Source: Somniosus microcephalus
Taxonomy: Eukaryota
NCBI GenBank assembly: GCA_052327205.1
Contig: CM126214.1
Location: 141,918,001-141,982,000 of the forward strand
DNA length: 64,000 bases
Direction: 5' to 3'
Below the pieces are notes generated by a model, which worked only from the letters and a program-made list of their open reading frames with translations, had not been told where the DNA came from and searched no databases. Made by a program: the position numbers and the translations under genes. This document shows, in pieces, positions 25,411-63,908 of this stretch. The first letter of the stretch is position 1, and each line of letters begins with the position of its first letter.

Positions 25411-27654
25411 TGTTGTCTCCGCTACCTCACCACAAACCAGAATCAAACCCATTCAGGTCTGAACAGCGTAATTCAATTTCCAACAGACATCTTGCGAAAA
25501 TGAATACATTTCAGTATTAACATCACACAACTGTTTAATGCAGGAGATTTAGAAGTACAGAACTGTAGAATATGTTGTACAGAAAAGCTGTACTTTGTAA
25601 AACACAATCCTCTCGAATTTGTAAATGTTTTCCTATTCAGTATATTGCTTTTTTAGTGCTGTCCTTAGTCGGTCAGATGTTCCCTTCCTCCCTAATCCAT
25701 GTGTGTTCAGGTGTCATTCTGTGTGTTAACACAGATATCCAAGTTTTTGTGGGCTCCACAAGTATGTACCACAAAGCCTCCGAGGCTGTATAAAATGTAA
25801 TGCCATGTTCCCTTTAATTTGCATATATTTCATGGTGCTTGTACTAGCCAGTCTTTTGAGGATTTATTCACCCATAAGGCAACAAGTGCTAAGAACTGCC
25901 ATTTCTAAACCTCAAAGTCCACAAAATTCAAAAGGGACAAACTAGGAAATAGAGAATTTAAACACAAATAGAACAGAGTTTCCTAGTTTTTGAGGGCTGG
26001 ATTTCGAAGATTTGAGTGCCATATGGAGCCCTAAGGTTGCAAGTTGAACAGTTGTGTGCTAAGGGAAACTAAACCAGGCACTCTGAATTACTTGGTAGTC
26101 AAGAGCTAATAAGGGAAAGGAAGGAAGAGGAAATAAAGCAATAATCAAAATTAGATTCAGAATATTTTGAATGCACCTAATTTAGTGTCTGGCTTATGTT
26201 AGTGTTTGTATTAAGTTTTATTTGCTATAACATTTTGTGACTTCACCTATTTACCCTTGGTTTGGTTATTTTAAAACACGGGTACATGGCTAGAATTGTA
26301 TTTTACTTTACAAGCCAGTACGGCAATTTTGTTAAAACTGACAGCAAGATTTAAATCTGACTCGTCTTTAATTTCCCTGATGCCTGCAATATTTTGCTTA
26401 CTTATAACTCTATTCAAGAAGCTGGACATTGAGGTTAATTAAATGCTGCATTGTGATTCTACCTGGTCACATCACTTGAAGTGTGTTCTCTGTTTTGCAA
26501 AGATAGCATTATTGATGAAAGGGTACATGAGAACATAAAGCATGGAACAAGAAAAGGCTATTTGGTCCATCAAGCTCGCTTGCTCCACAGACCATACACA
26601 ATCTACCTTATCATGGATTCTACCCCACACATTTAATCTCCTGAAGGAAAGCTCCGCATAAACATTCCCTCATTCCAAAAGGTAATCAAACAAAACTCCA
26701 GAATATTCATCCATCCATATATCTCCACCACTGAAATCAACAGCAGCTGAGCCACAGCAGCATTAGGAACCATTGTTTCCTGTGGAGTTGTTATTATTTC
26801 AGATTGTAGCTATTCCTATGGTCTCCAACCTCGATGTCTATCAGTTATTTACCCCATTCTTTTTGAATTGAGTTATTTGAAAACAAACTTGTTGCTGAGA
26901 ATCTGTTCCACAAATCTAATACTCTGTGTGCCACAACACAAGTGTGTTGGACAGTGTCGGAACCTACTCCAAGTCCTCTGCTAGTGCTGCTGTGAGCCAC
27001 CTGCTTAAGGTGTAGGAGAGCAGAGCAGTGATGACTTTCCTGGATTTTCCTCATGAGAAAGATGTTGGCCTCTGCTTAGCATTTCATTACAGCAATGCAG
27101 CTGAAATGGGAAAATTCGCCATGTAGTTGAATTGCAGGCATGGAACTCTGTCTCATCATTTTGTGTCACTAAGTATTGGTGGTCACTATCCTTCAGATGT
27201 ACCAAAAAGTGAAAAATGCATTCCATGACATGCCATTGTGTTATCATAGCTTGCTTCATCCTCAGTGAAATCCACAATGCCAGTGCATATCTGTTCTGTG
27301 CAGCTTTCTACTCCCAACCTGCCCACTTGCAACTGAATTTGATTGGTCAGTTTGCAACTGAACTGACCTGACACCAGTGTGCAGTTCAGCATTGTACTTG
27401 AATCAGTTAAATCTTAAAAAATTGAAAACAACTGATGTTGGAGTGGGGCAGTGGTCAGGAAATTGAAGAAAGCAGAAACAAATATAAAAAAAAAAAAAAA
27501 AGTTGCAAGTTACCTGAATATTACCTTTACCCATACAGTATTTTCACTTGCTTTTCATAATTAAGCATGCTCACTTAAGTCATATCACACTAATTGTATA
27601 TTGAAAATACTTCCATGGAGGCTTACCTGTGCCCTTTTGTCCCAAACAGAAACT

Positions 27655-27762
27655 ATGTACCAGCTTCCTGTCAACAACCTTGCAAATCTAAGAAAGGCTC
27701 GTAAAACAGTGAAAAAGATCCTTACAGATATTGGCTTGGATTATTGTAAAGATCATATAGAG
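27655..27762 (+). CDS. ADNP: ADNP coding exon 1 (exon begins at 27650)
   Basis: Acceptor 'aaacag|AAACTATG'. Translates [36 protein letters not shown], matching the ADNP N-terminus. Phase-0 donor 'GAG|gtaagt'. Confidence 0.97.
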
Positions 27763-28464
27763 GTAAGTAGAAATTTTTGTTTTTGGAGGAGGTGAAACTG
27801 GATTCAAATCCCATCCCCTCACATACTGATATAAAACTCCCTTTTGTTAGCTTTAAGAGTTTAAAAGGCAATGAGTTTGTGTAATTATTGGAGCCCTAAG
27901 TCCATAACACAATAATCTAGAACCTACCATTTCCACGTTGTAGACTTGCGCAGAGGAGCTACACAGGCAGCTGATGTGGGGAAAATGTTACATTGTTGCA
28001 ATAAAAGGTGCTCTTCTGAGTTCGATGTATCAGATTATTAGAGAGAGCTTTACTCTGCTTATGCTTGATGCTCCTTGTGTACATGGTTACAGAGGAAATT
28101 GCTTCTTGGGGTGCTGGTCAGAACGTCATGAGATTGTTTTCTTAGAGTTGTTTCTTAATGACTGTTGTCTGTATAATTCTAAGTAGATCAAGATTCTTGC
28201 TGTCTTGTCAGCAAACTACCGTGTACTCACATCTGAACATAAGAATATAAGAAATAGGAGCAGGAGTAGGCCAATCGGCCCCTCGAGCCTGCTCCGCCAT
28301 TCAATAAGATCATGGCTGATCTGATCCTAACCGCCAATCTACTATCACAGAACCATCTCCTGAATCTAACAGAATAAAACACACGAAATAGGAGCAGGAT
28401 CAGGCTACACGGCCCCTGGGCCCGCTGTGCTACCCACAGGGCCATGTCCGATCCAAACCTAGAC

Positions 28465-31419
28465 TCATGTCCAAATTCCTGCCCGCTCCCCGTAACCCTT
28501 AATTCCCTTTATTTCTAGGAAACTGTCTATTTCTGTTTTAAATTTATGTAATGATGTAGCTTCTACATCTTTTTGGGGCAGCATATTCCATGGACCTACC
28601 ACCCTCTTGAGTGAAGTAGTTCCTCCTCATCTCAGTTTTGAAAGAGCAGCCCCTTATTCTAAGACTATGCCCCCTAGTTCTAGTTTCACCCATCATCGGG
28701 AACATCCTCCCCGCATCCACCCGATCCAACCCCTTCACAATCTTATATGTTTCAATAAGATCGCCTCTCATTCTTCTGAACTCCAATGAATAGAGTCCCA
28801 ATCTACTCAACCTCTCCTCATCCCCGGGATTAACCGAGTGAACCTTCTTTGTACTGACTCGAGAGCAAGTATGTCTTTTCTTAAGTATGGACACCAAAAC
28901 TGTATGCAGTATTCCAGGTGCGGTCTCACCAATACCTTGTACAACTGAAGCAATACCTCCCTATTTTTATATTCTATCCCCCTAGCAATGAAAGCCAACA
29001 TTCCATTGGCCTTCTTAATCACTTGCTGCACCTGCATACTAACCTTTTGAGTTTCGTGCACCAGGACCCCCAGATCCCTTTATACTTCAGTACTTTCCAG
29101 TTTCTTGCCATTAAGATAATAACTTGCTCTACGATTTTTCCTGCCAAAGTGCATAACCTCACACTTTCCAGTATTGTATTCCATCTGCCAAATCTCTGCC
29201 CACTTACTTAGCCTATGTCCCCTTGCAGGTTTTTTATGTCCTCCTCACTCACTACTTTCCCTCCCATCTTAGTATCATCTGCAAACTTTGATATGTTACA
29301 CTCTGTCCCCTCCTCCAAATCGTTAATATAGATTGTAAAGAGTTGGGGACCCAGCACTGACCCCTGCGGAACACCACTAGTTACTGATTGCCAGTCTGAG
29401 AATGAACCATATATCCCAACTCTCTGCCTTCTGTTAGATAGCCAATCCTCTATCCATGCCAGAATATTACCCCTAATCCTGTGATTTTTTATCTTAAGCA
29501 ATAATCTTTTGTGTGGCACCTTGTCAAATGCCTTTTGGAAGTCTAAATACACTACATCCACTGGTTCCCCTTTATCCACCCTATATGTTACTTCCTCAAA
29601 GAACTCCAGCAAATTTGTCAGACTTCCCCTTCATAAAACCATGCTGACTTTGTCCTATTAAATTATGATTATCCAAATGTCCTGTTACTGTCTCCTTAAT
29701 AATGGACTCCAAAATTTTACCTACCGCAGATGTTAGGCTAACCGGTCTATAGTTTCCAGCCTTCTGTCTACTGCCCTTTTTAAATAAGGGTGTTACATTA
29801 GCAGTTTTCCAGTCTGCCGGGACCTTTGCTGAGTCCAGGGAGTTTTGGAAAATTATTACTAAAGCATCCACAATCCCTACCGCCACTTCCCTCAAGACCC
29901 TAGGATGTAAGCCATCAGGTCCAGGTGATTTAACCGCCTTGAGTCCCATTATTTTACCAAGTACCACTTCCTTAGTGATTTTGATCGTGTTTAGCTCCTC
30001 CCCCCCCCCATAGCCCCCTGTTTGTCCAGTGTTGGGATATTCTTAGTGTCCTCTACTGTAAAGACTGATACAAAATATTCATTCAGTGTTTTTGCCATCT
30101 CCATATTTCCCACCATTTCCCGGTCTCATCCTCTAAGGGACCAACATTTACTTTAGCCACCCTTTTTCTTTTTATATAACTATAAAAACTCTTACTATCT
30201 GCTTTTGTATTTTTTGCTAATTTACTTTCATAATCTATCTTCCCTTTCTTAATCAATCTTTTTGTTATTTTTTGCTGTCTTTTAAAGTTTTCCCAATCCT
30301 CTATCCTCCCACTAGATTTGGCTACCTTATATGCCCTTGTTTTTAGTCGAATACTATCCTTAATTTCTTTACTTAGCCACGGATGGCTGTCTTTTCTTTT
30401 ACACCCTTTTCTTCTCAGTGGAATATATATTTTTTGGAAGTTGTAAAATAACTCCTTAAATGTACACCACTGATCATGTATCGTCTTACCCTTTAATCTA
30501 TTTTCCCAATCCACTCTACTCAATTCCGCTCTCATACCTTCATAGTCTCCTTTATTCAAGCTTAGCATGCTTGTTTGAGATCCAACCTTCTCACCCTCTA
30601 ATTGAATATGGAATTCAACCATGTTATGGTCACTCATTCCAAGGGGATCCTTTACTAGGACATTTTTAATTAATCCTGTCTCATTACACAGGACCAGATC
30701 TAAGGTTGCTTGCCCCCTGGTCGGTTCAGTTACATACTGCTCAAGAAACCAATCCCTAATACACTCAATGAACGCATCCTCAAGGCAGCCCTGCCCAATT
30801 TGATTTGTCCAATTAATATGATAGTTAAAATCCCCCATAATTATAGATGTTCCCTTATTACAAGCCTCAACTATTTCCTGATTGATACTCCGTCCGACAG
30901 TGTTGCAACTGTTCAGAGGCCTATAGACTACGCCCACTAGTGTTTTTTTTCCCCTTATTATTCCATATCTCCACCCAAACTGTTTCATTGTCCTGATCTT
31001 TTGACCCAATATCATTTCTCTCTATTACAGTGATTCCTTCCTTTATTAACATAGCCTCCCCTTCCTTCCTGCCTGTCCTTCCTGATCGTTAAATAACCTG
31101 GTATGTTTAATTCCCAGGCATTGTCACCCTGCAGCCATGTTTCTGTAATGGCCACAAGATCATACCCATATGTAGTTATTTGTGCCATTAACTCGTCTAT
31201 TTTGTTACAAATGCTACGTGTTTTCAGATAGAGAACTTTCAAATATGTTTTGTGACACTTAGTTCCTGCTTTTGCCCTTTTTATTACTTTACCTTTTACT
31301 CCATACCTTCTGCCCCTTCCTGACACGCTCTGGTTTTTAATTTCCCCTCTGCTACCTAAGTCTATGACCTTCTCTGTTGTCATTTTTATTATTTGCTCTC
31401 TAGGAACCTCCCCCCCCAC
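28465..31419 (-). pseudogene. CR1 ORF2 (APE endonuclease-reverse transcriptase), multiple frameshifts
   Basis: Six consecutive ORF-track fragments carry EN and RT motifs in the expected order. Stop after ...RAGIWT. Confidence 0.92.
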
Positions 31420-31422
31420 TAG

Positions 31423-32376
31423 TTAGTTTAAAGCCCTCTCTACAGCCCTAGTTATATGATCCGCCAGGACTCTAGTCCCAGCACTGGCCAAGTGAAGCAT
31501 GTCCCAACGGAACAGCTCCCTCCTGCCCCAGTACTGGTGCCAGTGTCCGAGGAAGCAAAACCCATTTCTCTCACACCGGTCTTTGAGCCACGCATTTAAC
31601 TCTCTAATTTTATTTGTCCTAGCCAAATTCGTTCGTGGCTCAGGTAATAATCCAGAGATTATTACCCTTGAGGTTCTGTTTTTTAATTTGACCCCTAGCT
31701 GCTCATACTCCTTTAACAGAACCGGCTTCCTAGTCCTATCTACGTCGTTTGTACCAACATGGACCACGACAACTGGATCCACCCCCTCCCACCAAGTTTC
31801 TTTCCAGCCCAGAGGAGATGTCCTTAACCCTGGTACCGGGTAGGCAACACAGCCTTCGGGACTCTCGCTCTCGGCTGCAGAGAACTCTTATCTATCCCCC
31901 TAATAATACTATCCCCTACCACTACAACATTTCTATTTACTCCCCCCTCTTGAATGGCCCCCCCGTTCCACGGTGCTGTGGACAGGTTGCTCATCCTCCC
32001 TGCAGTCCCTGCTCCTGTCCCCACAGGGAGTAAGAACCTCGAACCTGTTGGACAAGAGCAAGGGCTGCGGCTCCTCCAGCTCTACCTCCTGGATCCCCAT
32101 ACCTGCCTCACTCGTAGTCACACCGTCCTGTCCCTGACCATGGGCTACATCTGAATTAATTAACTTCATAGGTGTGACCACCTCCTGATACACAGAGTCC
32201 AGGTACTTCTCCCCCTCCCTGATGTGTAGCAGTGTCTGAAGCTCAGACTCCAACTCATCAACACGGAGCTGGAGTTCCTGTAGCAGCAGACACTTGTCAC
32301 AGACGTAATCACCGTGAGCCTCAATGGGGTCCACCGGCTCCCACATCTCGCAACAGTAACACATCACCTGCTCCAT
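31423..32376 (-). pseudogene. CR1 ORF1 (Cys-rich/coiled-coil plus SGNH esterase), broken by frameshifts
   Basis: ORF-track pieces 31933-32376, 31824-32024 and 31423-31782 concatenate into one ORF1 ending RAVERALN*. Confidence 0.9.
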
Positions 32377-32587
32377 TCTATGTAATTAATTAAATTTTTT
32401 ATTGTTAGTTATGGACACCCTCTGTCCGATTTTAGATGCTGGTATCCCCTTTAATTAATTGGATTTAAATTAAATCAATCCCTCTAATTACACCAGTTAA
32501 ATGGTTTACCAACAGTCACTCTGCACCAGAAAGGCCTTATTAACTACAACCCACAGAGTTAAAGTTTGAAAAGAGCACCTAACACCC

Positions 32588-32897
32588 CACTTACCCAAAC
32601 TCACAGCACTCTCTGCTGACTCGCACTAGGACTGGTCTTTTTATACTGTTTGTTTGTTTACAGCCAAATGAGTCACCCCTGCTGATTGGTTAGAAAACTG
32701 GTTTCCACTGCCTGCTGTGCCAATTTACTCCTACTGCAGTGTAACCTTGTTTTACTCTTCTTAAACCAACAGAATCCCAAATATTTAACTTTTCCCCTTT
32801 ACTTAAACTGCTTAAGTAATCTTATCAAGAATGATTTAAAGAGAAATAACAATTAAAGAACTCTCGCACTTACCCAAACTCTCAGCACTCTCTGCTG
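32588..32897 (-). promoter_or_regulatory. Pol II promoter in the CR1 5' UTR, between two 31-bp direct repeats
   Basis: Minus strand: AACCAATCAGC (CCAAT 32689-32685), TGACTCA (32675-32669), GTAAACA (32661-32655), TATAAAAA (32645-32638), Inr-like TCAG at ~32617. Repeats 32588-32618 and 32867-32897 are 30/31 identical. Confidence 0.65.
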
Positions 32898-33951
32898 CAT
32901 TGTAGTGTGCAATGGCTTATTTGCTTTTGCATCTGTTAATTCTAGCTTATCTAAAAACAGGCCCAGTTACATTTGAAAATTTATTTTATTTTTGTATTGA
33001 AATTTAAGATTTTCAAGAAACCATACCCTCTCACGGATGTGTTGAATTCATAACTTTGTTTTTCTCAGAATAAGCTAAAGTGCTTTTCCCCAATAAATTT
33101 AGACACATATATAAATGTTTTTTTTAAATAATTTCCAGTACTGTTTTTATTGGTAAATTTTCACATTGCGATCTGTTTAGGGGTGTGTAGTTTGTGTGCT
33201 TGTTGCTGGTCTTTTTTTTTTAATCTCAAAAAATTGTGTTATTGCTAATTGCGCCTTGGCCAAGGATAACAATTTGGGAAAGTGGCGTGAGCACATAACC
33301 ACACAACTGAATTTGGTATCTGGTGAAAATATTCGTACCTCAACAGTTGATGGGGACTGCATTTGGCTCTTTTAGTTAAGAGTTTCGATCAGGATTTGAG
33401 AGTGAGGATAAATTTAACATAATGTATGTTTTTTCTCTGACCTCTATTTGACTGGGAGCCAAATTAAGCTCTGAGAATTCGTGCTAATTCTTATTTGAAA
33501 TCAATTCCTTTTATGCTCCCATTAATTTCAAACATAGGATGTTTTTTACTAACTTTGTGTGGAAGTTTTTTTTAAGGATAACCACACAATCAAGGATTTA
33601 AACTTTTAATTTTTGTCCTCTGAGCCAGAATAAGAAACTAGTTTTGAACTCAATCACTGCTGATTTGTACACACACTTGAAGGAATTTACTGACTATTGG
33701 AGAAGTTGCTACTCTGTAAAGCAATACTGCACGATATGAAGTTTATGTTGACATGTTGCTGCTTGGTCTGTTTGAAGTGATTGTAATTTATACTTTTTGC
33801 ATTCCCTTTGGGAGAGAAGAAAATTAAAATCTGTTGCTCTGATGCAAAGTTTCAGTGGAAGGTTTTTACTTAATGACAAAGAATAAAAAAAATAATGTAT
33901 TAAAAATCTTTTTTATATATTATTTATATACAACTAAAACTGTTCTTCCAG

Positions 33952-34044
33952 GATTTCAAACAGTTCGAACCAAATGACTTCTACCTGAAGAACACTACGT
34001 GGGACGATGTCTCGCTTTGGGACCCTTCTTCTACAAAGCTACAG
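33952..34044 (+). CDS. ADNP: ADNP coding exon 2
   Basis: Acceptor 'ttcttccag|'. Translates [31 protein letters not shown] (93 nt, phase 0/0). Donor 'CAG|gttagt'. Confidence 0.97.
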
Positions 34045-34993: not shown

Positions 34994-37900
34994 GATTATC
35001 GTACAAAACCATTTTGCTGCAGTGCTTGTCCTTTTGCATCCAAATTTTTTTCTGCCTACAAGAGCCACTTCAGAAATGTTCATAGTGAAGATTTTGAAAA
35101 CAAAATCCTGATAAATTGCCCTTATTGTCCATACAATGCTGACAGAAAGACCCTGGAGACCCATATCAAGATTTTTCATGTTCCTCTCTGGAAAGTACCC
35201 AGTGGAGGCAAGAATGCACACAATGAAAAGTCAAAGCAGGATGGCAATCTTAAACTGAAACATGCTGACAGCGTGGAGCAAGCAGTCTATTACTGTAAGA
35301 AGTGTACCTACCGAGATCCTCTGTATGATGTTGTCAGGAAACATATTTACAGGGAACATTTTCAACATGTGGCAGCGCCTTATGTGGCGAGAACAGGAGA
35401 CAAGTCGGTGAATGGCACATTTTCTGCCCCTAATGGACGAGATGATGGGACTGTACATTGCAAACGTTGTCTCTTCATACCCAAGACTTACGAGGCCTTG
35501 GTGCAGCATGTTATTGAAGACCATGAACGAATAGGATACCAAGTAACAGCAATGATAGGGCATACTAATGTGGTAGTACCAAGATCAAAGCCCTTGATGT
35601 TGATAGCACCAAAGCCACACGATAAGCCTTCTCTAGCTGCCGCAAATTATCAGAGTATTAAAACTTCAATGCAGCAGAATATGAATCGTGTATCCATGTC
35701 CAAAAGCGCACAGAATTCTGCAGTCAATCTTATGTCGAGTACTGGTCGTCTGCCACCAAAATATGCCATTTCATCAATGGCGCATAACTATTCTTTGGGG
35801 CAACAAATTAGACTCCCACTGCCAGGTGGTTTGCCAGTTTCCCTTCAGCAGCGATCACAAACAGTAAAACAGTTAATCTCCAGTGGCAATGGTAGGCAAT
35901 ATGGAGTTAGTGCTGGAGAACAGAGGCGGCCATCTCAGATGCAATATAATGTTCAGTCAGGAAGCTTGACCGGTAACAGTGCGTCCAGTCAATTGTCAAT
36001 GAAACAGTCGCAGTTCAGTATTTCTCAAGCACAAAGGATGCAAGGATTGTCCAGTTCAGCGGTAAAGTCATTAACTTCTCCAGCAGGCCTCACTAATTCT
36101 GCTACACAGAGCTCTGCATTGGCTGGTTCTGCTGCTCAGAAATGGAAGATCTGCACAATGTGTAATGAGCTTTTCCCAGAAAGTGTGTATAGCATACACT
36201 TTGAAAAGGAGCATAAAGCTGAAAAGATCCAGGCCGTAGCTAATTATATTCAGAAGATCAACAGTTTCACGAGCAAGTGTCTCTACTGCAACCGTTATTT
36301 ACCCAGTGAAACACTGCTTAACCATATGCTTATACATGGACTGTCGTGTCCCTACTGCCGTTCCACTTTCAATGATGTTGAAAAGATGGCTGAACATGTA
36401 AGAATCCTTCACATTGATGAAGAAGTGGGACCCAAGACTGAGTCAACATTAACTTTTGATTTGTCTACACAGAAGGGTAGTCGCAGTAATATACAACTCC
36501 TTGTAACTACATACAGTATTTCTGAGAGTCCCTCAATGGAGAATGCAAACTACCGACCCCAGAATCAGAACTTAACATTCAGAAAGCCAGAAGGGCAGTT
36601 GCAGCAGCCAAAACCACAGGTCAAATCTAAAATAAAGCCAGATTTGAATTCTATACCTCAAACCCAAATTCCCTATAAAAATGATGTTGGAAAAACCCTT
36701 TGCCCGTTGTGTTTCTCTATTTTGAAGGGCCCGATATCGGATGCTTTGGCTCACCATCTGAGGGAACGGCATCAGGTGATACAAACCATTCATCCAGTGG
36801 AGAAAAAACTCACCTATAAATGCATTCACTGTTTGGGAGTCTACACGAGTAACATGACCGCCTCTACTATAACATTGCATCTGGTACACTGTAGAGGTGT
36901 TGGAAAAGCACAAAATGGTCAAGATCGAAGTCTTGCTCATGCCAAGGTAACACACTCACCAAGTGTAATGCCCATGAAACGTGAATATGAGTATGAATAT
37001 GGGGACTTTGCTTTAATGAAAAAAAGGAAATTGGATGGTGAGGAGACTGTCCAGAGTTTTACCTTGGGAGAGGAAAAACTGGAGGAGCCAATAGTTTTGG
37101 CTATTGATCCAAAGGGCTATGAGGACGAGTCCTACGAGGCCAGAAAAATGTTTCTCACAAACTACTTTAACAAGCAACCCTACCCAAATCGAAGGGAAAT
37201 TGAAAAGTTGGCAGCTGGCTTATGGTTATGGAAATCGGACATTGCCTCACACTTCAGCAATAAGAGGAAGAAATGTGTTCGGGATTGTGAGAAGTACAGG
37301 CCCAAGGTATTGCTGGGATTTAACATGATGGAGTTGCGAAAGGTAAAGCACAATATGGACTTTGGGCCTACTTGGAATATGTTAAATAACAAAGAAGTAG
37401 GTGGCAAAGAATCCGCCAGTTCAAAACCAAACTCGGAGAAAGTGAATCGGAAGACCGAGAAAGAGAAAAGAGATTTGAATCTGGGATCAGAAAAGGTGGA
37501 GGCAAGTGTTTTGGATTTGAGCTCCCAAATGGAGGAAAATTCAAATCCAAACTCAGAAAAGGTAGAGGGAGGTGCTTCGAGCCAGAGCTCAGAAAAAATG
37601 GAGGGAAGTGCTTTAGATTTGAGCACTCAGATGGAAGAAAGTCCTTCAAACGTGAGCTCTGAGATGGTGGAGGGAACACCATTAGATTTGAGTGCTCAGA
37701 TGGTAGAGGAAACCCCTTCAATCAAGAGCGCTGAGATGGTGGAGGAAAGTCCTTCAAATGTGAGTTCTGACATGGCGGAGGGAACTGCTTTAGATTTGAG
37801 TTCTCAGATGGTGGAGGGAAGCCCTTCAATCAAGAGCGCTGAGATGGTGGAGGGAAGCCCTTCAAATATGAGCTCTGAGATGGTGGAGGGAAGCCCTTCA

Positions 37901-38644
37901 AATATGAGCTCTGAGATGGTAGAGGAAAATGCTTCAAATATGAGCTCTGAGATGGTGGAGGAAAATGCTTCAAATACTTGTGCAGGTGAAGATTTGCCAT
38001 CAACTGAAATGGGTAGAGAAGAAACTTCTGAAATGTTGAGTAATGAATTGCAAAAACCTGCATTGGCGCTGAAGGATGATGAATCAAATATGGAAGAGGA
38101 GCAATATCCTGAGCCAGCTTCAGAATCAAAAGATAAAGAATCAGAAAGTGAGGATTCTGAAGAATTCTCGGAATGTAAAGATGGTGTTTCTCCGACTGAG
38201 GATGGACTAGCATCTCCACAAGCATCTGATCAGGAGGATGTTTCATCTGAACTCAAACAAGAGTTTTGGATCAAACGACCGTGGACAGATGATGCATCCC
38301 AAAGTGAAGAGGAGCAGGAGCCCACACGGTCCTCTGAAACAAAAGCTGCATTAGAAAGTGATGAACAGAACTGGACAGAAGGTCCAGCTGAGTGGAGTGG
38401 AGAGCCTTTCCAAAATGAAGAAGAAAAGTGGGCCAAAGAACAGCCTGAATGGAAGAATGTTTCGCCAGAGAATGAGGAAAGTTTGTCTAATCCACTGTTG
38501 GAGTGGCAAGGTAACACAGCAGATAGTGAAGCTGAGGAGCTTGATCAGCTCCTCGATCAGTCAAATGATGGTCTTTCAGATAATGTGGCAGAACCGGTTT
38601 GTGGCTCATCATCTGGTGTTGGGCTAAGTAGTCAGCCTGCATAG
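34994..38644 (+). CDS. ADNP: ADNP coding exon 3: C2H2 zinc fingers, NLS, homeodomain, PxVxL motif, acidic tail
   Basis: Acceptor 'ttttcag|'. Begins [14 protein letters not shown], in frame with the 1123-aa ORF of the track. Contains [45 protein letters not shown], the homeodomain [29 protein letters not shown] and PKVLL (37301-37315), and ends LSSQPA*. Joined CDS is 3852 nt = 1283 aa. Confidence 0.98.
37430..37980 (+). repeat. Coding tandem repeat, ~33-36-bp units, in ADNP exon 3
   Basis: Unit like 'agctctgagatggtggagggaagcccttcaaatatg' ([12 protein letters not shown]), roughly 15 copies, most homogeneous at the 3' end. Confidence 0.9.
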
Positions 38645-49743: not shown

Positions 49744-51489
49744 AAGAAATAGGAGCAGGAGTAGGCCAATCGGCCCCTCGAGCCTGCTCCGCCATTCAAT
49801 AAGATCATGGCTGAGCTGATCCTAACCGCCAATCTACTATCGCAGAACCATCTCCTAAATCTAACAGAATTAGACACACGAAATAGGAGCAAGATCAGGC
49901 TACACGGCCCCTGGGCCCGCTCCGCTACCCACAGGGCCATGACCGATCCGAACCTAGACTCATGTCCAAATTCCTGCCCGCTCCCCGTAACCCTTAATTC
50001 CCTTTACTTCTAGGAAACTCTCTATTTCTGTTTTAAATTTATGTAATGATGTAGCTTCTACAGCTTTTTGGGGCAGCATATTCCATGGGCCTACCACCCT
50101 CTGAGTGAAGTAGTTCCTCCTCATCTCAGTTTTGAAAGAGCAGCCCCTTATTCTAAGACTATGCCCCCTAGTTCTAGTTTCACCCATCATCGGGAACATC
50201 TTCCCTGCATCCACCCGATCCAACCCCTTCACAATCTTATATATTTCAATAAGATCGCCTCTCATTCTTCTGAACTCCAATGAGTAGAGTCCCAATCTAC
50301 TCAACCTCTCCTCATATGTCCATCCCCGGGATTAACCGAGTGAACCTTCTTTGTACTGACTCGAGAGCAAGTATGTCCTTTCTTAAGTATGGACACCAAA
50401 ACTGTTCCCAGTATTCCAGGTGCGGTCTCACCAATACCTTGTACAACTGAAGCAATACCTCCCTATTTTTATATTCTATCCCCCTAGCAATGAAAGCCAA
50501 CATTCCATTGGCCTTCTTAATCACTTGCTGCACCTGCATACTAACCTTTTGAGTTTCGTGCACCAGGACCCCCAGATCCCTTTCTACTTCAGTACTTTCC
50601 AGTTTCTTGCCATTAAGATAATAACTTGCTCTACAATTTTTCCTGCCAAAGTGCATAACCTCACACTTTCCAGTATTGTATTCCATCTGCCAAATCTCTG
50701 CCCACTTACTTAGCCTGTCTATGTCCCCTTGAAGGTTTTTTATGTCCTCCTCACTCACTACTTTCCCCCCCATCTTAGTATCATCTGCAAACTTTGATAT
50801 GTTACACTCGGTCCCCTCCTCCAAATCGTTAATATAAATTGTAAAGAGTTGGGGACCCAGCACTGACCCCTGCGGAACACCACTAGTTACTGATTGCCAG
50901 TCTGAGAATGAACCATTTATCCCAACTCTCTGCCTTCTGTTAGATAGCCAATCCTCTATCCATGCCAAATATTACCCCCAATCCCGTGATTTTTTTATCT
51001 TAAGCAATAATCTTTTGTGTGGCACCTTGTCAAATGCCTTTTGGAAGTCTAAATACACTATGTCCACTAGTTCCCCTTTATCCACCCTATATGTTACTTC
51101 CTCAAAGAACGCCAGCAAATTTGTCAAACATGACTTCCCCTTCATAAAACCATGCTGACTTTGTCCTATTAAATTATGATTATCCAAATGTCCTGTTACT
51201 GTTTCCTTAATAATGGACTCCAAAATTTTACCTACCGCAGATGTTAGGCCTTCTGTCTACTGCCCTTTTTAAATAAGGGTGTTACATTAGCAGTTTTCCA
51301 GTCTGCCGGGACCTTTGCTGAGTCCAGGGAGTTTTGGAAAATTACCAATGCATCCACAATCCCTACCGCCACTTCCCTCAAGACCCTAGGATGTAAGCCA
51401 TCAGGTCCAGGTGATTTATCCGCCTTGAGTCCCATTATTTTACCGAGTACCACTTCCTTAGTGATTTTGATCCTGTTTAGCTCCTCCCC
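49744..51489 (-). mobile_element. CR1 LINE copy 2 (same young family as copy 1), 5'-truncated
   Basis: Near-identical to 28250-30003. RT motifs in ORFs 51244-51453, 50972-51223, 50312-50968 and 49960-50304. Confidence 0.95.
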
Positions 51490-51589: not shown

Positions 51590-52925
51590 TGGTTAGCCTA
51601 ACATCTGTTGTTGGGAAATTATTAGTGTCTATAATAAGGATGGAGTGACTGAACACTTTAAATTTTCAGCTGATGAGAGAGAGAGCCAGCATGGATTTGT
51701 AGAAGGTGGGTCATGCCTGACAGACCTGATTGAGTTTTTTTTGAAGAGGTGACTATAGTAGTGGACAGGGGACTGTCTATGAATGTTATTTATATGGATT
51801 TCCATAAGGCATTCGATAAAGTTCCTTATAAGACAGTTGGCTAAAGTTGAAGCTCATGGAATTAAGGGCAAATTATTGACCTGGTTAGGAGATTAGCTGA
51901 GCGGCAGGAGACAGAGAGTAGGGATAATGGGCAAGTAGTCTAATTGGCAGGCTGTGACTAGTGGTGTCCCACAGGGATCTGTGTTAGGGCCTCAACTATT
52001 CACTGTATTTATTAATAACTTAGATGATGGGATAGAAAGTCATATATCCAAGTTTGCTGATGATAGACAGCATTGTAAGCAGTGTAGATGGAAGCAAAAC
52101 TTACAAAGATATTAATAGATTGGGCAAAACTGTGGCAAATGGAATTCAATATACATAAATGTGAGGTCATCCACTTTGGACCTAAAAAGGATAGATCAGA
52201 GTACTTTCTAAATGGTAAATAGCTAGAAACAGTGGAGTTCCAAAGAGACTTAGGGGTCCACATACATAGAGAATTAAAATGCCATGGACAGGTACAAAAA
52301 AAAAATCTAAAGGCTTGTGGAATGCTGGTCTTTATATCTAGAGGACTAGAATACAAGGGGTTAGAAGTTGTGCTGCAGCTATACAAAGCCCTGGTTAGAC
52401 CACACCTGGAGTACTGTATTCAGTTCTGGGCACCACACCTTGGGAAGGATATACTGGCCTTGGAGGGAGTGCAGCGTAGACTTACTAGAATGATACCTGG
52501 ACTCCAAGGGTTAAATTACGAGGAGCAATTACATAGTGTTCTATTCCCTGGAATTTAGAAGATTAAGGGGTGATTTGATTGAAGTTTAAGCTATTAAGGG
52601 GAACTGATGGGGAAGATAGTGAGAAATTATTTTTGCTGGTTGGGGAATCTAGGACTAGTGGACAGAGCCTAAAAATTAAAGCCAGGCCTTTCAGGAGTGA
52701 AGTTAGGAAATCACTCCTACACGCAGAGCAGGGTAGAAGTTTGGAACTCTCTTCAGCAAACGGCAGTTGGTGCTGGGTCAATTTTTGATTTTAAATCTAA
52801 GATTGATAGATTTCTGTTAACCAAAGGTATTAAGGAATATGAAGTTAGGTAACAGATCAGCCATGGTCTCATTGAATGGTGGAACAGGCTCGAGGGACTA
52901 AATGGCCTACTCCTGTTATGTTCAA
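51590..52925 (+). mobile_element. CR1 LINE, older subfamily, 5'-truncated and decayed
   Basis: RT motifs ([35 protein letters not shown]) with many indels. Single 3' module ending 'ggcctactcctgttatgtt'. Confidence 0.9.
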
Positions 52926-54505: not shown

Positions 54506-57500
54506 CATAACATAAGAAATAGGAGCAGGAGTAGGCCAATTGGCCCCTCGAGCCTGCTCCGCCATTCAATAAGATCATGGCTGATCTGATCCTAGCCGCC
54601 AATCCACTATGACAGGACTATCTCCTGAATCTAACAGAATTAGACACACGAAACAGGAGCAGGATCAGGCTACACGGCCCCTGGGCCCGCTCCGCTACCC
54701 ACAGGGCCATGACCGATCCGCACCTAAACTCATGTCCAAATTCCTGCCCGCTCCCCGTAACCCTTAATTCCCTTTTCTTCTAGGAAACTGTCTATTTCTG
54801 TTTTAAATTTATGCAATGATGTAGCTTCGACAGCTTTTTGGGGCAGCATATTCCATGGACCTACCACCCTCTGAGTGAAGTAGTTCCTCCTCATCTCAGT
54901 TTTGAAAGAGCAGCCCCTTATTCTAAGACTATGCCCCCTAGTTCTAGTTTCACCCATCATCTGGAACATCCTCCCCGCATCCACCCGATCCAACCCCTTC
55001 ACAATCTTATATGTTTCAATAAGATCGTCTCTCATTCTTCTGAACTCCAATGAGTAGAGTCCCAATCTACTCAACCTCTCCTCATATGTCCATCCCCTCG
55101 ATTAACTGAGTGAATCTTCTTTGTACTGACTCGAGAGCAAGTATGTCTTCTTAAGTATGGACACCAAAACTGTATGCAGTATTCCAGGTGCGGTCTCACC
55201 AATACCTTGTACAACTGAAGCAATACCTCCCTATTTTTATATTCTATCCCCCTAGCAATGAAAGCCAACATTCCATTGGCCTTCTTAATCACTTGCTGCA
55301 CCTGCATACTAACCTTTTGAGTTTCGTGCACCAGGACCCCCAGATCCCTTTCTACTTCAGTACTTTCCAGTTTCTTGCCATTAAGATAATAACTTGCTCT
55401 ACGATTTTTCCTGCCGAAGTGCATAACCTCACACTTTCCAGTATTGTATTCCATCTGCCAAGTCTCTGCCCACTTACTTAGCCTGTCTATGTCCCCTTGC
55501 AGGTTTTTTATGTCCTCCTCACTCACTACTTTCCCTCCCATCTTAGTATCATCTGCAAACTTTGATATGTTACACTCGGTCCCCTCCTCCAAATCGTTAA
55601 TATAGATTGTAAAGAGTTGGGGACCCAGCACTGACCCCTGCGGAACACCACTGGTTACTGATTGCCAGTCTGAGAATGAACCATTTATCCCAACTCTCTG
55701 CCTTCTGTTAGATAGCCAATCCTCTATTCATGCCAGAATATTACCCCCAATCCCGTGATTTTTTATCTTAAGCAATAATCTTTTGTGTGGCACCTTGTCA
55801 AATGCCTTTTGGAAGTCTAAATACACTACGTCCACTGGTTCACCTTTATCCACCCTGTATGTTACTTCCTCAAAGAACGCCAGCAAATTTGTCAAACATG
55901 ACTTCCCCTTCATAAAACCATGCTGACTTTGTCTTATTAAACTATGATTATCCAAATGTCCCGTTACTGTCTCCTTAATAATGGACTCCAAAATTTTACC
56001 TACCACAGATGTTAGGCTAACCGGTCCATAGTTTCCAGCCTTCTGTCTACTGCCCTTTTTAAATAAAGGTGTTACATTAGCAGTTTTCCAGTCTGCTGGG
56101 ACCTTTGCTGAGTCCAGGGAGTTTTGGAAGATTATTACCAATGCATCCACAATCCCTACCGCCACTTCCCTCAAGACCCTTGGATGTAAGCCATCAGGTC
56201 CAGGCGATTTATCCGCCTTGAGTCCCATTATTTTACCGAGTACCACTTCCTTAGTGATTTTGATCGTGTTTATCTCCTTCCCCCCCCCCCCCCCCCCCCA
56301 TAGCCCCCTGCTTGTCCAGCGTTGGGATATTCTTGGTGTCCTCTACTGTAAAGACTGATACAAAATATTCATTGTGTTTTTGCCATCTCCATATTTCCCA
56401 CCATTAATTTCCCAGTCTCATCCTCTAAGGGACCAACATTTACTTTAGCCACCCTTTTTCTTTTTATATAACTATAAAAACTCTTTATCTGTTTTTATAT
56501 TTTTTGCTAATTTACTTTCCTAATCAATCTTTTTGTTATTTTTTGCTGTCTTTTAAAGTTTTCCCAATCCTTTATCCTCCCACTAGATTTGGCTACCTTA
56601 TATGCCCTTGTTTTTAGTCGAATACTATCCTTAATTTCTTTACTTAGCCACGGATGGCTGTCTTTTCTTTTACACCCTTTTCTTCTCAGTGGAATATACT
56701 TTTTTTGGAAGTTGTAAAATAACTCCTTAAATGTACACCACTGATCATGTATCGTCTTACCCTTTAATCTATTTTCCCAATCCACTTTGCTCAATTCTGC
56801 TCTCATACCTTCATAGTCTCCTTTATTCAAGCTTAGCACGCTTGTTTGAGATACAACCTCCTCACCCTCTAATTGAACATGGAATTCAACCATGTTATGG
56901 TCACTCATTCCAAGGGGATCCTTTACTAGGACATTTTTAATTAATCCTGTCTCGTTACACAGGACCAGATCTAAGGTTGCTTGCCCCCTGGTCGGTTCAG
57001 TTACATACTGCTCAAGAAACCCATCCCTAATACACTCAATGAACTCATCCTCAAGGCAGCCCTGCCCAATTTGATTTGTCCAGTTAATATGATAGTTAAA
57101 ATCCCCCATAATTATAGATGTTCCCTTATTACAAGCCTCAACTATTTCCTGATTGATACTCCGTCCAACCGAGTTGCAACTGTTCGGAGGCCTATAGACT
57201 ACGCCCACTAGTGTTTTTTTCCCCTTATTATTCCTTATCTCCACCCAAACTGTTTCATTATCCTGACCTTTTGAGTCAATATCATTTCTCTGTATTAGTG
57301 ATTCCTTCCTTTATTAACATAGCCACCCCACCTCCCCTTCCTTCCTGCCTGTCCTTCCTGATCGTTAAATAACCTGGTATGTTTAATTCCCAGGCATTGT
57401 CACCCTGCAGCCATGTTTCTGTAATGGCCACAAGATCATACCCATATGTAGCTATTTGTGCCATTAACTCATCTATTTTGTTACGAATGCTGCGTGCATT

Positions 57501-58413
57501 CAGATAGAGAACTTTCAAATGTGTTTTTTGACACTTAGTTCCTGCTTTTGCCCTTTTTATTACTTTACCTTTTACTCCATACCTTCTGCCCCTTCCTGAC
57601 ACGCTCTGGTTTTTCATTTCCCCACTGCTACCTAAGTCTCTGACCTTCTCTGTTGTCATTTTTATTATTTGTTCTCTAGGAACCTCCCCCCACTAGTTAG
57701 TTTAAAGCCCTCTCTACAGCCCTAGTTATATGATCCGCCAGGACCCTAGTCCCAGCACTGGCCAAGTGAAGCCCGTCCCAACGGAACAGCTCCCTCCTGC
57801 CCCAGTACTGGTGCCAGTGTCCCAGGAAGCAAAACCCATTTCTCCCACACCAGTCTTTGAGCCACGCATTTAACTCTCTGATTTTATTTGTCCTAGCCAA
57901 ATTCGCTCGTGGCTCAGGATTATTACCCTTGAGGTTCTGTTTTTTAATTTGACCCCTAGCTGCTCATACTCCTTTAACAGAACCGGCTTCTTAGTCCTAT
58001 CTATGTCGTTTGTACCAACATGGACCACGACGACTGGATCCACCCCCTCTCACTGCAAGTTTCTTTCCAGCCCAGAGGAGATGTCCTTAACCCTGGCACC
58101 GGGTAGGCAACACAGCCTACGGGACTCTCGCTCTTGGCTGCAGAGAACTCTATCTATCCCCCTAATACTACTATCCCCTACCACTACAACATTTCTATTT
58201 ACTCCCCCCTCTTGAATGGCCCCCCGTTCCACGGTGCTGTGGCCAGGTTGCTCATCCTCCCTGCAGCCCCTGCTCCCGTCCCCACAGGGAGTAAGAACCT
58301 CGAACCTGTTGGTCAAGTGCAAGGGCTGCGGCTCCTCCAACACTACCTCCTGGTTCCCCGTACCTGCCTCACTCGTAGTCACACCGTCCTGACCCTGGCC
58401 ATGGGCTACATCT
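54506..58413 (-). mobile_element. CR1 LINE copy 3 (young family), truncated within ORF1
   Basis: Near-identical to 28238-32152. Has the ORF1 esterase part and the whole ORF2 region, with frameshifts. Confidence 0.95.
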
Positions 58414-58488
58414 ACATTTCATAACCCTCCCATATGTGTACAAAGGAAACCTGGAGGTTTGTACACATATGGGAGGGTTATGAAATGT
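58414..58488. repeat. Perfect 31-bp inverted repeat with 13-nt spacer at the 5' junction of CR1 copy 3
   Basis: acatttcataaccctcccatatgtgtacaaa (58414-58444) / tttgtacacatatgggagggttatgaaatgt (58458-58488). Confidence 0.95.
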
Positions 58489-60752: not shown

Positions 60753-63700
60753 ACTCAAAGTTCCAGGGTACTTGACGTTTCGAAAAGACAGGCAGAATGG
60801 AAAAGGAGGGAGTAGCCCTGATAATAAAGGATGACATAAGGACATTAAGGATCTCGGCTCGAAAGATCAGGAAGTAGAATCAGTATGGGTGGAGATAAGG
60901 AATAACTAGGGGCAGAAAACACTGGTAGGAGTAGTAAATAGGCCCCCCAACAGTAGCTATACCGTTGGACAGAATATTAATCAAGAAATAGTAGGAGCTT
61001 GCAACAAAGGTAATGCAATAATATTGGTGGACTTTAATCTTCATATAGGCTGGACAAAGCAAATTGGCAAAGGTAGTCTGGAGGACGAGTTCATGGAAAG
61101 CATTCAGGACAATTTCCTAGAACAATATGTCATGGAACCAACCAGGGAACAGGCTATTTTAGATCTTGTATTGTGTAATGAGACAGGGTTAATTAGCAAT
61201 CTCATAGTAAAGGATCCTCTGGGGCAGAGTGATCATAATATGATAGAATTTCACATTAATTTTGAGAGTGACTTGCCTAAGTCCTAAACTAGAGTCTTAA
61301 ACTTAATAAAGTCAATTACATAGGTATGAGGGGTGAGTTGGCTAAGGCAGATTGGAAAAATAGATTAAAAGCTATGGCGGTAGATAAGCAGTGGCTAGCA
61401 TTTAAAGAAATATTTCATAATTCTCAACAAAAATACATTCCATTGAGAAACAAAAACTCCACGGGAAAAGTGATCCAACCGTGGCTAACTAAAGAAGTTA
61501 AGGATAGCATTAGATTGAAAGAAGCAGCTTATAATGTTGCAAAGAATAATAATATACCTGAGGATTGGAAGAGTTTCAGAAACCAGCAAAGGTTGACCAA
61601 AAAAATTGATAAAAAAGGAAGAGAAAACTAGTGAGATATATAAAAGCAGATTGTAAGAGTTTCTACAAGTATGTAAAAAGGAAAAGAGTAGCAAAAGTAA
61701 ATGTTGGTCCGTTAGAGGCTGAGACAGGAGAAATTATTACAGGGAATAAGGAAATGGCACAAATGTTAAGCAAATATTTTGTTTCTGTCTTCACAGTAGA
61801 AGTCACAAAAAGCATACCAAAAATGGTATGGAACCAAGGGTCTAATGAGGGTGAGGAACTTAACGTAATTAATATAAGTAGAGAAAAAGTACTAGAGAAA
61901 CTAATGGGACTAAAAGCCGGCAAATCCCCTGGACCTGACGACCTACATCTTAGGGTTCTAAAAAAGAGGTGGCTGAAAAGATAGTGGATGCATTGGTTTT
62001 GATCTTCCAAAATTCCCTAGATTCTGGAATGGTCCCAGCGGATTGGAAGGTCACAAATGTAACACCGCTATTCAAGAAAGGAGGGAGAGGAAAAAACGGA
62101 ACTACAGGCCAGTTAGCCTGACATGAGTCGTTGGGAAAATGCTGGAATCCATTGTTAAGCAAGTGGTATCAAGTCACTTAGAAAATCATAACATGATTAG
62201 GCAGAGTCAACGTGGTTTTATGAAAGGGAAATCGTGTTTGACAAATTTATTAGTTTTTTGAGGATGTAACTAGCAGGGTAGATAAAGGGGAACCAGTGGA
62301 TGTACTATATTTGGATTTCCAAAAGACATTCGATAAGGTGCCACATAAAAGGTTATTACACAAGATTAGGGCTCATGGGGTTGGGATAATATAGTAGCAT
62401 GGATAGGACTCAATATCGAGTTCAACAATTTCAGATCATAACCCCATTACATTTTTACTTATATTTTTTATCCACCCCTTTGTTTTGGTATTTCCCCCCC
62501 CCCTTTCCTTTTTTTCTCTCTCTCTCCCACATGGCAGCTGTCTCTCTGCCAGAACATTTCACACCTAATCTGAGCCGTCTTTTGTCTCCACTAGTCCTAT
62601 CACCATCTCATCTCGTTTTGAATACCTCTTAACGTCTCTTCACTTCTTTTGTTCTCTCGCAGCCCTGCCTTTCGATCTATTTCATTTCCTTTCCAGTTTT
62701 GAAAAAAAGGGTTAGACCCGAAACGTCGACTCCAATTTCTCTCCACGGATGTTGCCTGGCCTGCTGAGTTTTTCCAGCATTTTCTGTTGTTATTTTGGAT
62801 TTCCAGCATCTGCAGTATTTTGCTATCGTAGCATGGATAGAGGATTGGTTAACGAACAGAAAACAGTAGGGATAAACAGATTTTTTCAGGTTGGCAGGCT
62901 GCAACTAGTGGGGTGCCGCAAGGATCAGTGTTGGGGTCTCAGCTATTTACAATCTATATTAATGACCTAGATGAAAGGACTGAGTAATGTATCCAAGTTT
63001 GCTGATGATACAAAGCTAGGTGGGACAGTAAGCTGTGAGGAGAACACAAAGAGTCTGCGAAGGGATGTAGATAGACTAAGTGAATGGGCAGTAAGGTGGC
63101 AGATGGAGAACAATGTAGGGAAATGTGTAGTTATTCACCTTGGTAGGAAGAATAGAAAACCAATATTTTTTTAAATGGTGAGTAACTTTCAAATGTTGGT
63201 GTTCAAAGAGATTCGGATGTCCTCGTGCAGGAAACACAGAAAGCTAACATGCAGGTACAGCAAGCAATAAGGCAGGCAAGTGGCATGTTGGCCTTTATTA
63301 CAAAGGGGTTGGAGTGTAAGAATAAGGAAGTCTTGCTACAATTGTACAGGGCCTTGGTGAGACCACACCTGGAGTACTGTGCACCATTTTGGTCTCCTTA
63401 TCTAAGAAAGGATATACTTGCCTTGGAGGCAGTGCAATGAAGGTTCACTAGATTGATTCCTGGGATGAGAGGGCTGTGCTATGATGAGAGATTGTGTAGA
63501 ATGGGCCTATACTCTGGAGTTTAGAAGAATGAGAGGTGATCTCATTGAAACAAGGGGATTGACGGGGTAGATGCTGAGAGGTTGTTTCCCCTGGCTGGAG
63601 TGTCTAGAACTAGGGGGCATAGTCTCAGGATAAGGGGTAGGCCATTTAAGACTGCGATGAGGAGGAATTTCTTCACTCAAAGGGTTGTGAATCTTTGGAA

Positions 63701-63908
63701 TTCTCTGCCCCAGAGGGCTGTGGATGCTGAGTCTTTGAGTATATTCAAGGCTCAGATAGATTTTTGGACTCTGGGTAATCAAGGGATATGGAGATCAGGC
63801 AGGAAAGTGGAGTTGAGGTCAATGATGAGCCATGATTTTATTGAATGGCGGAGCAGGCTCGAGGGGCCGTATGGCCTACTCCTGCTCTTATTTCTTATGT
63901 TCTTATCT
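60753..63908 (+). mobile_element. CR1 LINE, intermediate-age subfamily, ORF2 region and 3' end, interrupted by a Penelope-like insertion
   Basis: EN motifs (PGYLTFRKDR, DFNL, LDLVL, SDHN), RT motifs and tail 'cctactcctgctcttatttcttatgttcttat'. Many stops and frameshifts. Confidence 0.93.
62407..62827 (+). mobile_element. 5'-truncated Penelope-like element (ORF end plus terminal repeat) nested in CR1, 13-bp TSD
   Basis: TSD gtagcatggatag at 62394-62406 and 62828-62840. Begins (G)LNIEFNNFRS*, like the GLN-containing end of GIY-YIG PLE ORFs. Contains GGGT-TAG-ACCC-GAAAC-GTCGAC. Confidence 0.8.

Follow-up and report, generated by a model that had tools for sequence, protein, structure and literature searches.

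A candidate TATA-type promoter between duplicated splice-donor cassettes in a CR1 leader of Somniosus microcephalus

A decayed CR1 retrotransposon in the genome of Somniosus microcephalus has a candidate TATA-type promoter in its 5′ leader, set between two copies of a 31-nt cassette that each end in a consensus splice donor. We interpret this leader as a 279-bp promoter monomer that is present in 1.11 copies and linked to ORF1 by a 210-nt tether, forming a monomer-tether system in which promoter units are lost and regained; we regard this as a serious possibility and put it forward tentatively. The analysis covered one stretch of 64,000 nt from contig CM126214.1 (referred to here as the window), in which a single copy of the leader was examined and no array with at least two whole monomers was present. 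The anatomy of the leader, its spacing and its purge of ATG triplets are directly observed. The textbook view is that LINEs depend on internal promoters, since whatever lies upstream of the start site does not survive copying.

The element and its host locus

The window contains the ADNP gene, whose last exon matches Pfam ADNP_N. The CR1 element lies antisense to ADNP, in the intron that separates its first coding exon from its second. The main features of the locus are as follows.

27650..27762 (+), ADNP first coding exon, flanking the insertion
28235..32897 (-), decayed full-length CR1 non-LTR retrotransposon, ~4.66 kb (Pfam, tblastn and sister-copy alignment)
28235..28330 (-), conserved 3′ tail with short TTCTTAT-type repeats and without poly(A) (3′ junctions of three copies)
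28400..31400 (-), limits approximate, ORF2 remnants (APE endonuclease and RT) with several stops and frameshifts
31423..32376 (-), ORF1 with one mid-ORF frameshift: CX2CX16CX2C zinc finger, leucine-rich heptads and SGNH esterase
33952..34044 (+), ADNP second coding exon, flanking the insertion
34994-38644 (+), ADNP last coding exon, with the ADNP_N match

The ORF1 profile matched the ORF1 protein of PDB entry 4c1b (E 3.8e-38). The closest ORF1 homologue, from the ray Hemitrygon akajei, matched at 72% over the first 147 residues and began at the same Met, which agrees with the ORF1 start at 32376 proposed in an earlier, sequence-only reading of this DNA. The remaining close named relatives of ORF1 came from sharks, rays and one chimaera. 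Pfam detected the esterase and the endonuclease (Exo_endo_phos_2) of the copy at 28235-32897 and RVT_1 in two sister copies; the RT of the former was traced by tblastn from a sister copy. A short-repeat 3′ tail in place of poly(A) is a feature of CR1, and the tail found here recurs at no fewer than five further 3′ ends in the window. Alignment with the copy at 54509-58413 gave 94.6% identity over 3951 columns. The two other family copies in the window, including the one just named, were 5′ truncated, starting at 58413 (inside ORF1) and at 51489 (inside ORF2), and substitution divergence among family copies was 2.4 to 3.3%.

According to excerpts of PMC4120745, CR1 subgroup 7 (ORF1 type IVB) combines a zinc finger/leucine zipper with an esterase. 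Judged by its ORF1 type and by C-terminal motifs, the shark element matches vertebrate CR1 subgroup 7, with which it shares the ORF1 architecture, an APE-RT ORF2, a microsatellite-like 3′ end and frequent 5′ truncation.

Members of more distant CR1 families were present at 60763-63906 (+) and 51591-52915 (+). They are 70% and 65% identical and have the same ~80-nt 3′ tail, and the former shows a ~420-bp alignment gap at 62406-62831. Directly at the 5′ junction of the CR1 copy truncated at 58413 lies a perfect inverted repeat (58414-58488; 31 bp, loop of 13 nt), possibly an integration fold-back or a small MITE.

Duplicated cassettes and a TATA-type promoter

The leader comprises the following features, all on the minus strand.

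32867..32897 (-), cassette 1 (outer 31-mer): 24-nt exon and donor GTAAGTG (repeat comparison)
32619..32866 (-), monomer body, 248 nt, 36% GC, 2 CpG, no sense ATG, bearing the predicted promoter
32685..32689 (-), CCAAT box in strict RRCCAATSR context, 71 nt before cassette 2
32669..32675 (-), AP-1 consensus TGACTCA, 57 nt before cassette 2
32655..32661 (-), forkhead-like GTAAACA, of low information and inside an AAAC run, 43 nt before cassette 2
32638..32645 (-), TATA box TATAAAAA, 27-28 nt before cassette 2
32588..32618 (-), cassette 2 (inner 31-mer): 24-nt exon and donor GTAAGTG; predicted start for the TATA promoter
32378..32587 (-), tether, or 3′ part of the putative intron, 210 nt, no ATG
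32404..32409 (-), branch-point-like ACTAAC, its branch A 27 nt before the acceptor G
32378..32380 (-), putative 3′ splice site TAG, lacking a pyrimidine tract and separated by a single base from the ATG at 32376

The sequence-only reading had described the duplication of the 31-mer and had judged the sequences after the two copies to be unrelated by eye. Both observations held. The cassettes are identical at 30 of 31 positions, lie 279 bp apart and each end in G followed by GTAAGT; the longest direct repeat with one mismatch was 31 nt, compared with a maximum of 17 nt in 60 shuffles of the region. Cassette 1 and the monomer body together make the 279-bp unit. With 1.11 units present, the evidence for repetition is the 31-nt overlap, and Tandem Repeats Finder does not flag the unit. 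For the segments that follow the two cassettes, local and global alignment scores were matched by 62/500 and 70/500 shuffles, respectively. Since these flanking segments are unrelated, the identity of the cassettes is either recent or kept by turnover. The probability of at most one mismatch in 31 nt is 0.73 to 0.83 at the family divergence of 2.4 to 3.3% and 0.04 at 15%, and the cassettes were probably identical at the time of insertion.

Both cassettes sit at the 5′ end of the element, and no third copy was found in the window at up to three mismatches. Upstream of 32897 no further monomer remnant was detected (128/500 and 271/500 shuffles scored as well). Scans of GTDB gave 0 matches for the cassette and 53 pattern matches for the ORF1 profile, 0 of them confirmed, as expected for prokaryotic genomes, and tblastn of 214 proteins against the window revealed no further ORF1 start. 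The leader region gave no indication of a structured RNA (z of -1.08; no Rfam match at E<=5).

The CCAAT box, AP-1 site, forkhead-like site and TATA box proposed earlier were all recovered at 71, 57, 43 and 27 nt before cassette 2, and a weaker reverse copy of CCAAT lies at 32724-32720. A TATAWAWR motif 25 to 34 nt upstream is found for only 0.41% of window positions. Among the 64 TATA sites in the window, the one at 32645 is the only one with AP-1 nearby. Four of the 64 are accompanied by a strict CCAAT box; the other three represent one homologous spot in ORF2, so such clusters can arise by chance, though seldom at a site specified in advance. The Inr consensus is YYANWYY, and the start of cassette 2 fails it: the TCAG put forward as Inr-like reduces to a CA dinucleotide, the T being absent from the outer cassette. 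One E-box and three CpGs occur in the leader region. The unit body contains no YY1 core and does not resemble a promoter of the CpG-island/YY1 type.

The start of the repeat, the start predicted from the TATA box and the 5′ end base of the copy all agree. The last upstream ATG (32900-32898) directly abuts cassette 1. We infer that the first base of cassette 1 was the 5′ end of the RNA that made the copy at 28235-32897. The base preceding cassette 1 is G. An extra 5′ G can be cap-derived, as in L1, and this one could be too, which is a weak hint.

Absence of upstream ATGs and the origin of the outer unit

No sense ATG occurs in the 521 nt from 32897 to 32377. Dinucleotide shuffles of the same region contained 7.0 ATGs on average, and 0/5000 were free of them. 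Of the 64 trinucleotides, none is as depleted there as ATG; the antisense triplet occurs six times, and the 521 nt directly upstream of 32897 contain nine ATGs. Outside elements, 0/8554 control windows lacked ATG. None of the 2493 ATG-free gaps on the two strands of the window is longer than this region; a gap of 521 nt arose somewhere in 50/200 simulated windows, however, so the depletion carries weight only because the limits under test had been set in advance by the sequence-only reading. When the leader was divided, ATG-free shuffles numbered 14/5000 for the tether, 187/5000 for the outer unit and 358/5000 for the body without its cassette, the depletion thus being weak for the monomer body alone. 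Control windows of the size of the outer unit were ATG-free in 48/8796 cases.

Base composition was compared as well. The G:C skew of the body (55:35) is like that of the tether (45:27; p=0.87) and like that of ORF1. The body differed from pooled host intron (p=0.004) but not from the first 250 nt upstream (p=0.42); the skew change point is broad (32894-33140) and does not fix the boundary. No convincing target-site duplication was found at 32897 (score 3.5, reached by 116/300 random positions) or at 32618 (a degenerate match with a score of 5.5, reached by 23/300).

The lack of sense ATGs through 32897 would place the outer unit inside the element. On ATG absence and skew together, the outer 279 bp is probably element sequence, as the sequence-only reading had supposed. 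Selection against ATG acts only on sequence that is scanned by ribosomes, and purging of the putative introns suggests that the unspliced RNA is probably an mRNA. The unspliced RNA itself would then probably be translated, and splicing would probably not be needed to make ORF1 mRNA. Extrapolating from one copy, a leader with TATA box and putative intron is probably the design of the family.

A putative 5′-UTR intron

Consensus donors had been claimed for both repeats and are present, with their GTs at 32873 and 32594. GGTAAGT occurs nine times in 128 kb (both strands); two of these are the cassettes and one is a real ADNP donor. The putative intron would be 217 nt long from donor 2 and 496 nt from donor 1, and splicing from either donor would leave an identical leader of 25 nt, whose -3 position is a purine. 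The acceptor claimed before ORF1 was borne out in its position, with TAG ending at 32378, one base before the ATG, but not in its composition: its pyrimidine score of 0.47 equals the median of random YAG sites, compared with 0.59 to 0.76 at three ADNP acceptors (one read one base off). The branch-point consensus had escaped the sequence-only reading. No AG lies between the branch A and the acceptor, and AATAAA (32403-32398) follows immediately after ACTAAC. An acceptor with a branch point lies within 10 nt of 16/2492 window ATGs, and 7/4108 YAG sites have ACTAAC at the canonical distance together with an AG-free zone. Of the features of a U2-type intron, the donor, the branch point and the first AG were found and the polypyrimidine tract was lacking. 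Donor, branch point and first AG make an intron plausible, and, with the donor strong and the acceptor weak, splicing would be expected to be partial.

Poly(A) signals are also present in the leader, AATAAA at 32403 and ATTAAA at 32455, and the whole element contains seven AATAAA in the sense and one in the antisense orientation. U1 binding near the cap can protect RNA from early cleavage. With AATAAA directly after the branch point and seven sense copies overall, cap-proximal U1 binding could also protect the RNA of this element.

A zinc finger was found in 38/214 proteins, lying within 22 residues of the N-terminus in 35/38. Among the 214, no host-ORF1 fusion joined at the ORF1 Met was found. 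Three long proteins with host domains were considered as evidence for the acceptor and set aside: their ORF1 match starts mid-ORF and gives no support. P0109, P0125 and P0092 are predicted fusions of host domains (FNIP, DAO and anticodon-binding) to the C-terminal half of CR1 ORF1. In Pristis pectinata, a complete CR1 ORF1 (P0014) bears the name "40S ribosomal protein S24 isoform X2," which suggests either a transcript spliced between a host gene and CR1 or an error of annotation.

A monomer-tether model and its alternatives

Under the proposed model, the leader would comprise one whole 279-bp monomer, the first 31 nt of a second and the 210-nt tether. The CCAAT, AP-1 and TATA elements of each monomer body would direct transcription to begin on the opening bases of the following cassette, and the copy at 28235-32897 would have been made from RNA begun at cassette 1 and driven by an extra monomer in its parent. 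The unspliced RNA would be both template and mRNA. Every round of retrotransposition would drop the outermost promoter unit; the promoter of this copy would itself give promoterless daughters, so persistence would need units to be regained, with unequal exchange and template switching at the 31-mers as possible routes. The cap-near donor would recruit U1, splicing to the weak acceptor would occur in part of the RNA only, and spliced RNA would give promoterless dead-end copies. Start sites, parent array, unit regeneration and splicing are the parts of the model that we infer from the anatomy of the leader. The sequence-only reading had left open how the outer unit is regenerated, and regain by unequal exchange or by cDNA re-annealing would supply an answer.

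It is unlikely, in our estimation, that a LINE of sharks and rays carries its TATA promoter as a disposable unit in a retained intron that is rebuilt by 31-nt strand transfer. In that case cDNA at the RNA 5′ end would re-anneal to the inner cassette and copy another unit, in a manner resembling the use of the retroviral R region but lying wholly at the 5′ end. The cap-proximal intron would also give the transcript the appearance of a host-gene RNA and might evade HUSH-type surveillance of intronless RNA.

The repeat can also be accounted for without regeneration. Internal promoters are the norm for LINEs (PMC5860796, in part), and in a fixed two-start leader the outer cassette would be such a promoter, producing genomic RNA with help from the downstream CCAAT and AP-1 sites, while the TATA box would produce a shorter mRNA from cassette 2. 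This explanation does without an unobserved parent array. The 31-nt length also equals the span of a downstream core promoter. However, the cassette has no strict match to an Inr or a DPE (by eye, against consensus sequences), the leader region has just the one E-box and three CpGs, and near-identity over 31 nt exceeds what selection on a degenerate core promoter would keep. Internal initiation explains the cassette identity less well than the monomer-tether model does, and we hold the two-start leader to be doubtful. Another possibility is that the element begins at 32618, with 32897-32619 being host DNA or a single chimeric 5′ addition. Chimeric 5′ ends are known for L1 (excerpt of bioRxiv 10.1101/2025.02.02.635956), no second example was present in the window or in GTDB (prokaryotic genomes), and there is the target-site-like match at 32618, although 23/300 random positions reach its score. 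Such an origin would demand that a TATA box at the right spacing, with CCAAT and AP-1, had arisen by chance, that the outer unit lacked ATG by chance and that the 31-mer had been duplicated independently; we consider it very unlikely.

Splicing itself allows two further readings. In the sequence-only reading, unspliced RNA was the template and spliced RNA the ORF1 mRNA, which presupposes that the intron is efficiently spliced. The perfect and scarce donors, the branch point with its first AG 1 nt before the ATG and the common 25-nt leader speak for this division of labour, and that part of the claim, plausible intron signals, stands. The division itself is weakened by the ATG-purged introns, as such a purge would be pointless if no ribosome met the intron; in addition, the acceptor has no pyrimidine tract, no host-ORF1 fusion at the ORF1 Met was found among the 214 proteins, and retrotransposed spliced L1 RNAs are dead ends in the available text of PMC5860796. 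We judge it quite improbable. Alternatively, the leader may not be spliced at all. The donors would then be U1 sites that boost transcription and mask poly(A) signals, or part of a factor site, and the AG before the ATG would be translation context only. Consistent with this, poly(A) signals lie in the leader and AATAAA recurs in the sense orientation, and the same source describes a human L1 donor that is kept as part of a RUNX3 site. The absence of splicing is compatible with the monomer-tether promoter model, yet a branch point at the canonical distance with an AG-free zone is uncommon among YAG sites, and we rate it as somewhat unlikely.

Comparison with described elements

The monomer-tether reading has its nearest counterpart in rodent L1, whose leaders consist of tandem monomers and a ~250-bp tether to ORF1 (excerpts of PMC5381506). 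In the portions of PMC6454616 available, rodent L1 5′ ends coincide with start sites, and monomer expansion is attributed to unequal crossing-over or to events during cDNA synthesis, with the mechanism called unclear. On the monomer-tether reading, the shark leader would share with L1Md A/Gf/Tf and rat L1Rn a tandem promoter unit of a few hundred bp, a tether of ~200 to 250 bp, a 5′ end that coincides with the start site and the requirement that lost units be regained. However, rodent monomers are CpG-rich with YY1 and AP-1 sites, whereas the shark unit is AT-rich and CpG-poor with TATA and CCAAT boxes; unlike rodent L1, the shark unit has a splice donor at +24, belongs to a different clade and is present here in 1.11 units only. 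By analogy, the leader would work like a rodent L1 monomer promoter without being a member of that type.

A promoter that overlaps a 5′-UTR intron kept on retrotransposition is described for Penelope and Chlamys PLEs in excerpts of PMC8557442. PLE pseudo-LTRs are, however, a tandem copy of the 3′ end, whereas the shark leader has no 3′-end homology and belongs to an APE-type LINE. A Penelope-like pseudo-LTR was rejected for this element on those grounds (leader against body and 3′ end gave 10-mers only, E>=1.7; the endonuclease is APE, not GIY-YIG), as was an LTR with R-U5 and U3-R ends (the cassette occurs twice, both times 5′, and there is no 3′ terminal repeat). Human L1 likewise has a donor and an acceptor in its leader, and its spliced RNAs yield dead-end SpIREs from which promoter elements have been removed (PMC5860796, in part). 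The promoter of human L1 is internal, and its splice sites appear to be incidental; the shark donor, in contrast, is perfect, duplicated and cap-proximal, and the shark acceptor sits at the start codon.

Within CR1, a paper on the chicken elements states that a 32-bp direct repeat occurs in the 5′ UTRs of their turtle and pufferfish counterparts (PMC2734521, an excerpt citing other papers), so CR1 leaders may have had short repeats for a long time. The descriptions of CR1 leaders available in part name E-box/C-EBP/Sp1 or Oct-1/AP-1 types and mention no TATA box, donor or intron. A TATA-type upstream promoter with cap-proximal splice signals is what the shark element would add to CR1; a full-text search, covering mainly papers outside subscription journals, found no report of either a TATA promoter or an intron in the leader of a CR1 element. 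Given the published rodent L1 and Penelope/Chlamys precedents, the earlier suggestion of an undescribed system was too strong.

If the arrangement holds for the family, a start site fixed to a base or two would make the regain of promoter units countable from genome copies, and every copy should start at a cassette with an integer number of units. A real cap-proximal LINE intron would also bear on escape from silencing of intronless RNA, an idea raised for L1 in the accessible part of bioRxiv 10.1101/2025.02.02.635956. CR1 is abundant in such genomes, as illustrated by the several fragments in the window, and leaders of this kind could add many antisense promoters and exon-trapping acceptors. 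At this locus the host gene concerned is ADNP.

The TATA promoter at 32645 (-) would drive antisense transcription through the ADNP intron toward 27762, where the first coding exon lies. The last ADNP exon contains a 36-nt (12-aa) tandem repeat of 9.6 copies at 37632-37976 (+), in the acidic C-terminal region, which is possibly lineage-specific. Two dispersed repeats of 340 to 400 bp, 71 to 77% identical, were also present in the window (2215-2588/40160-40550 and 13161-13493/17490-17827).
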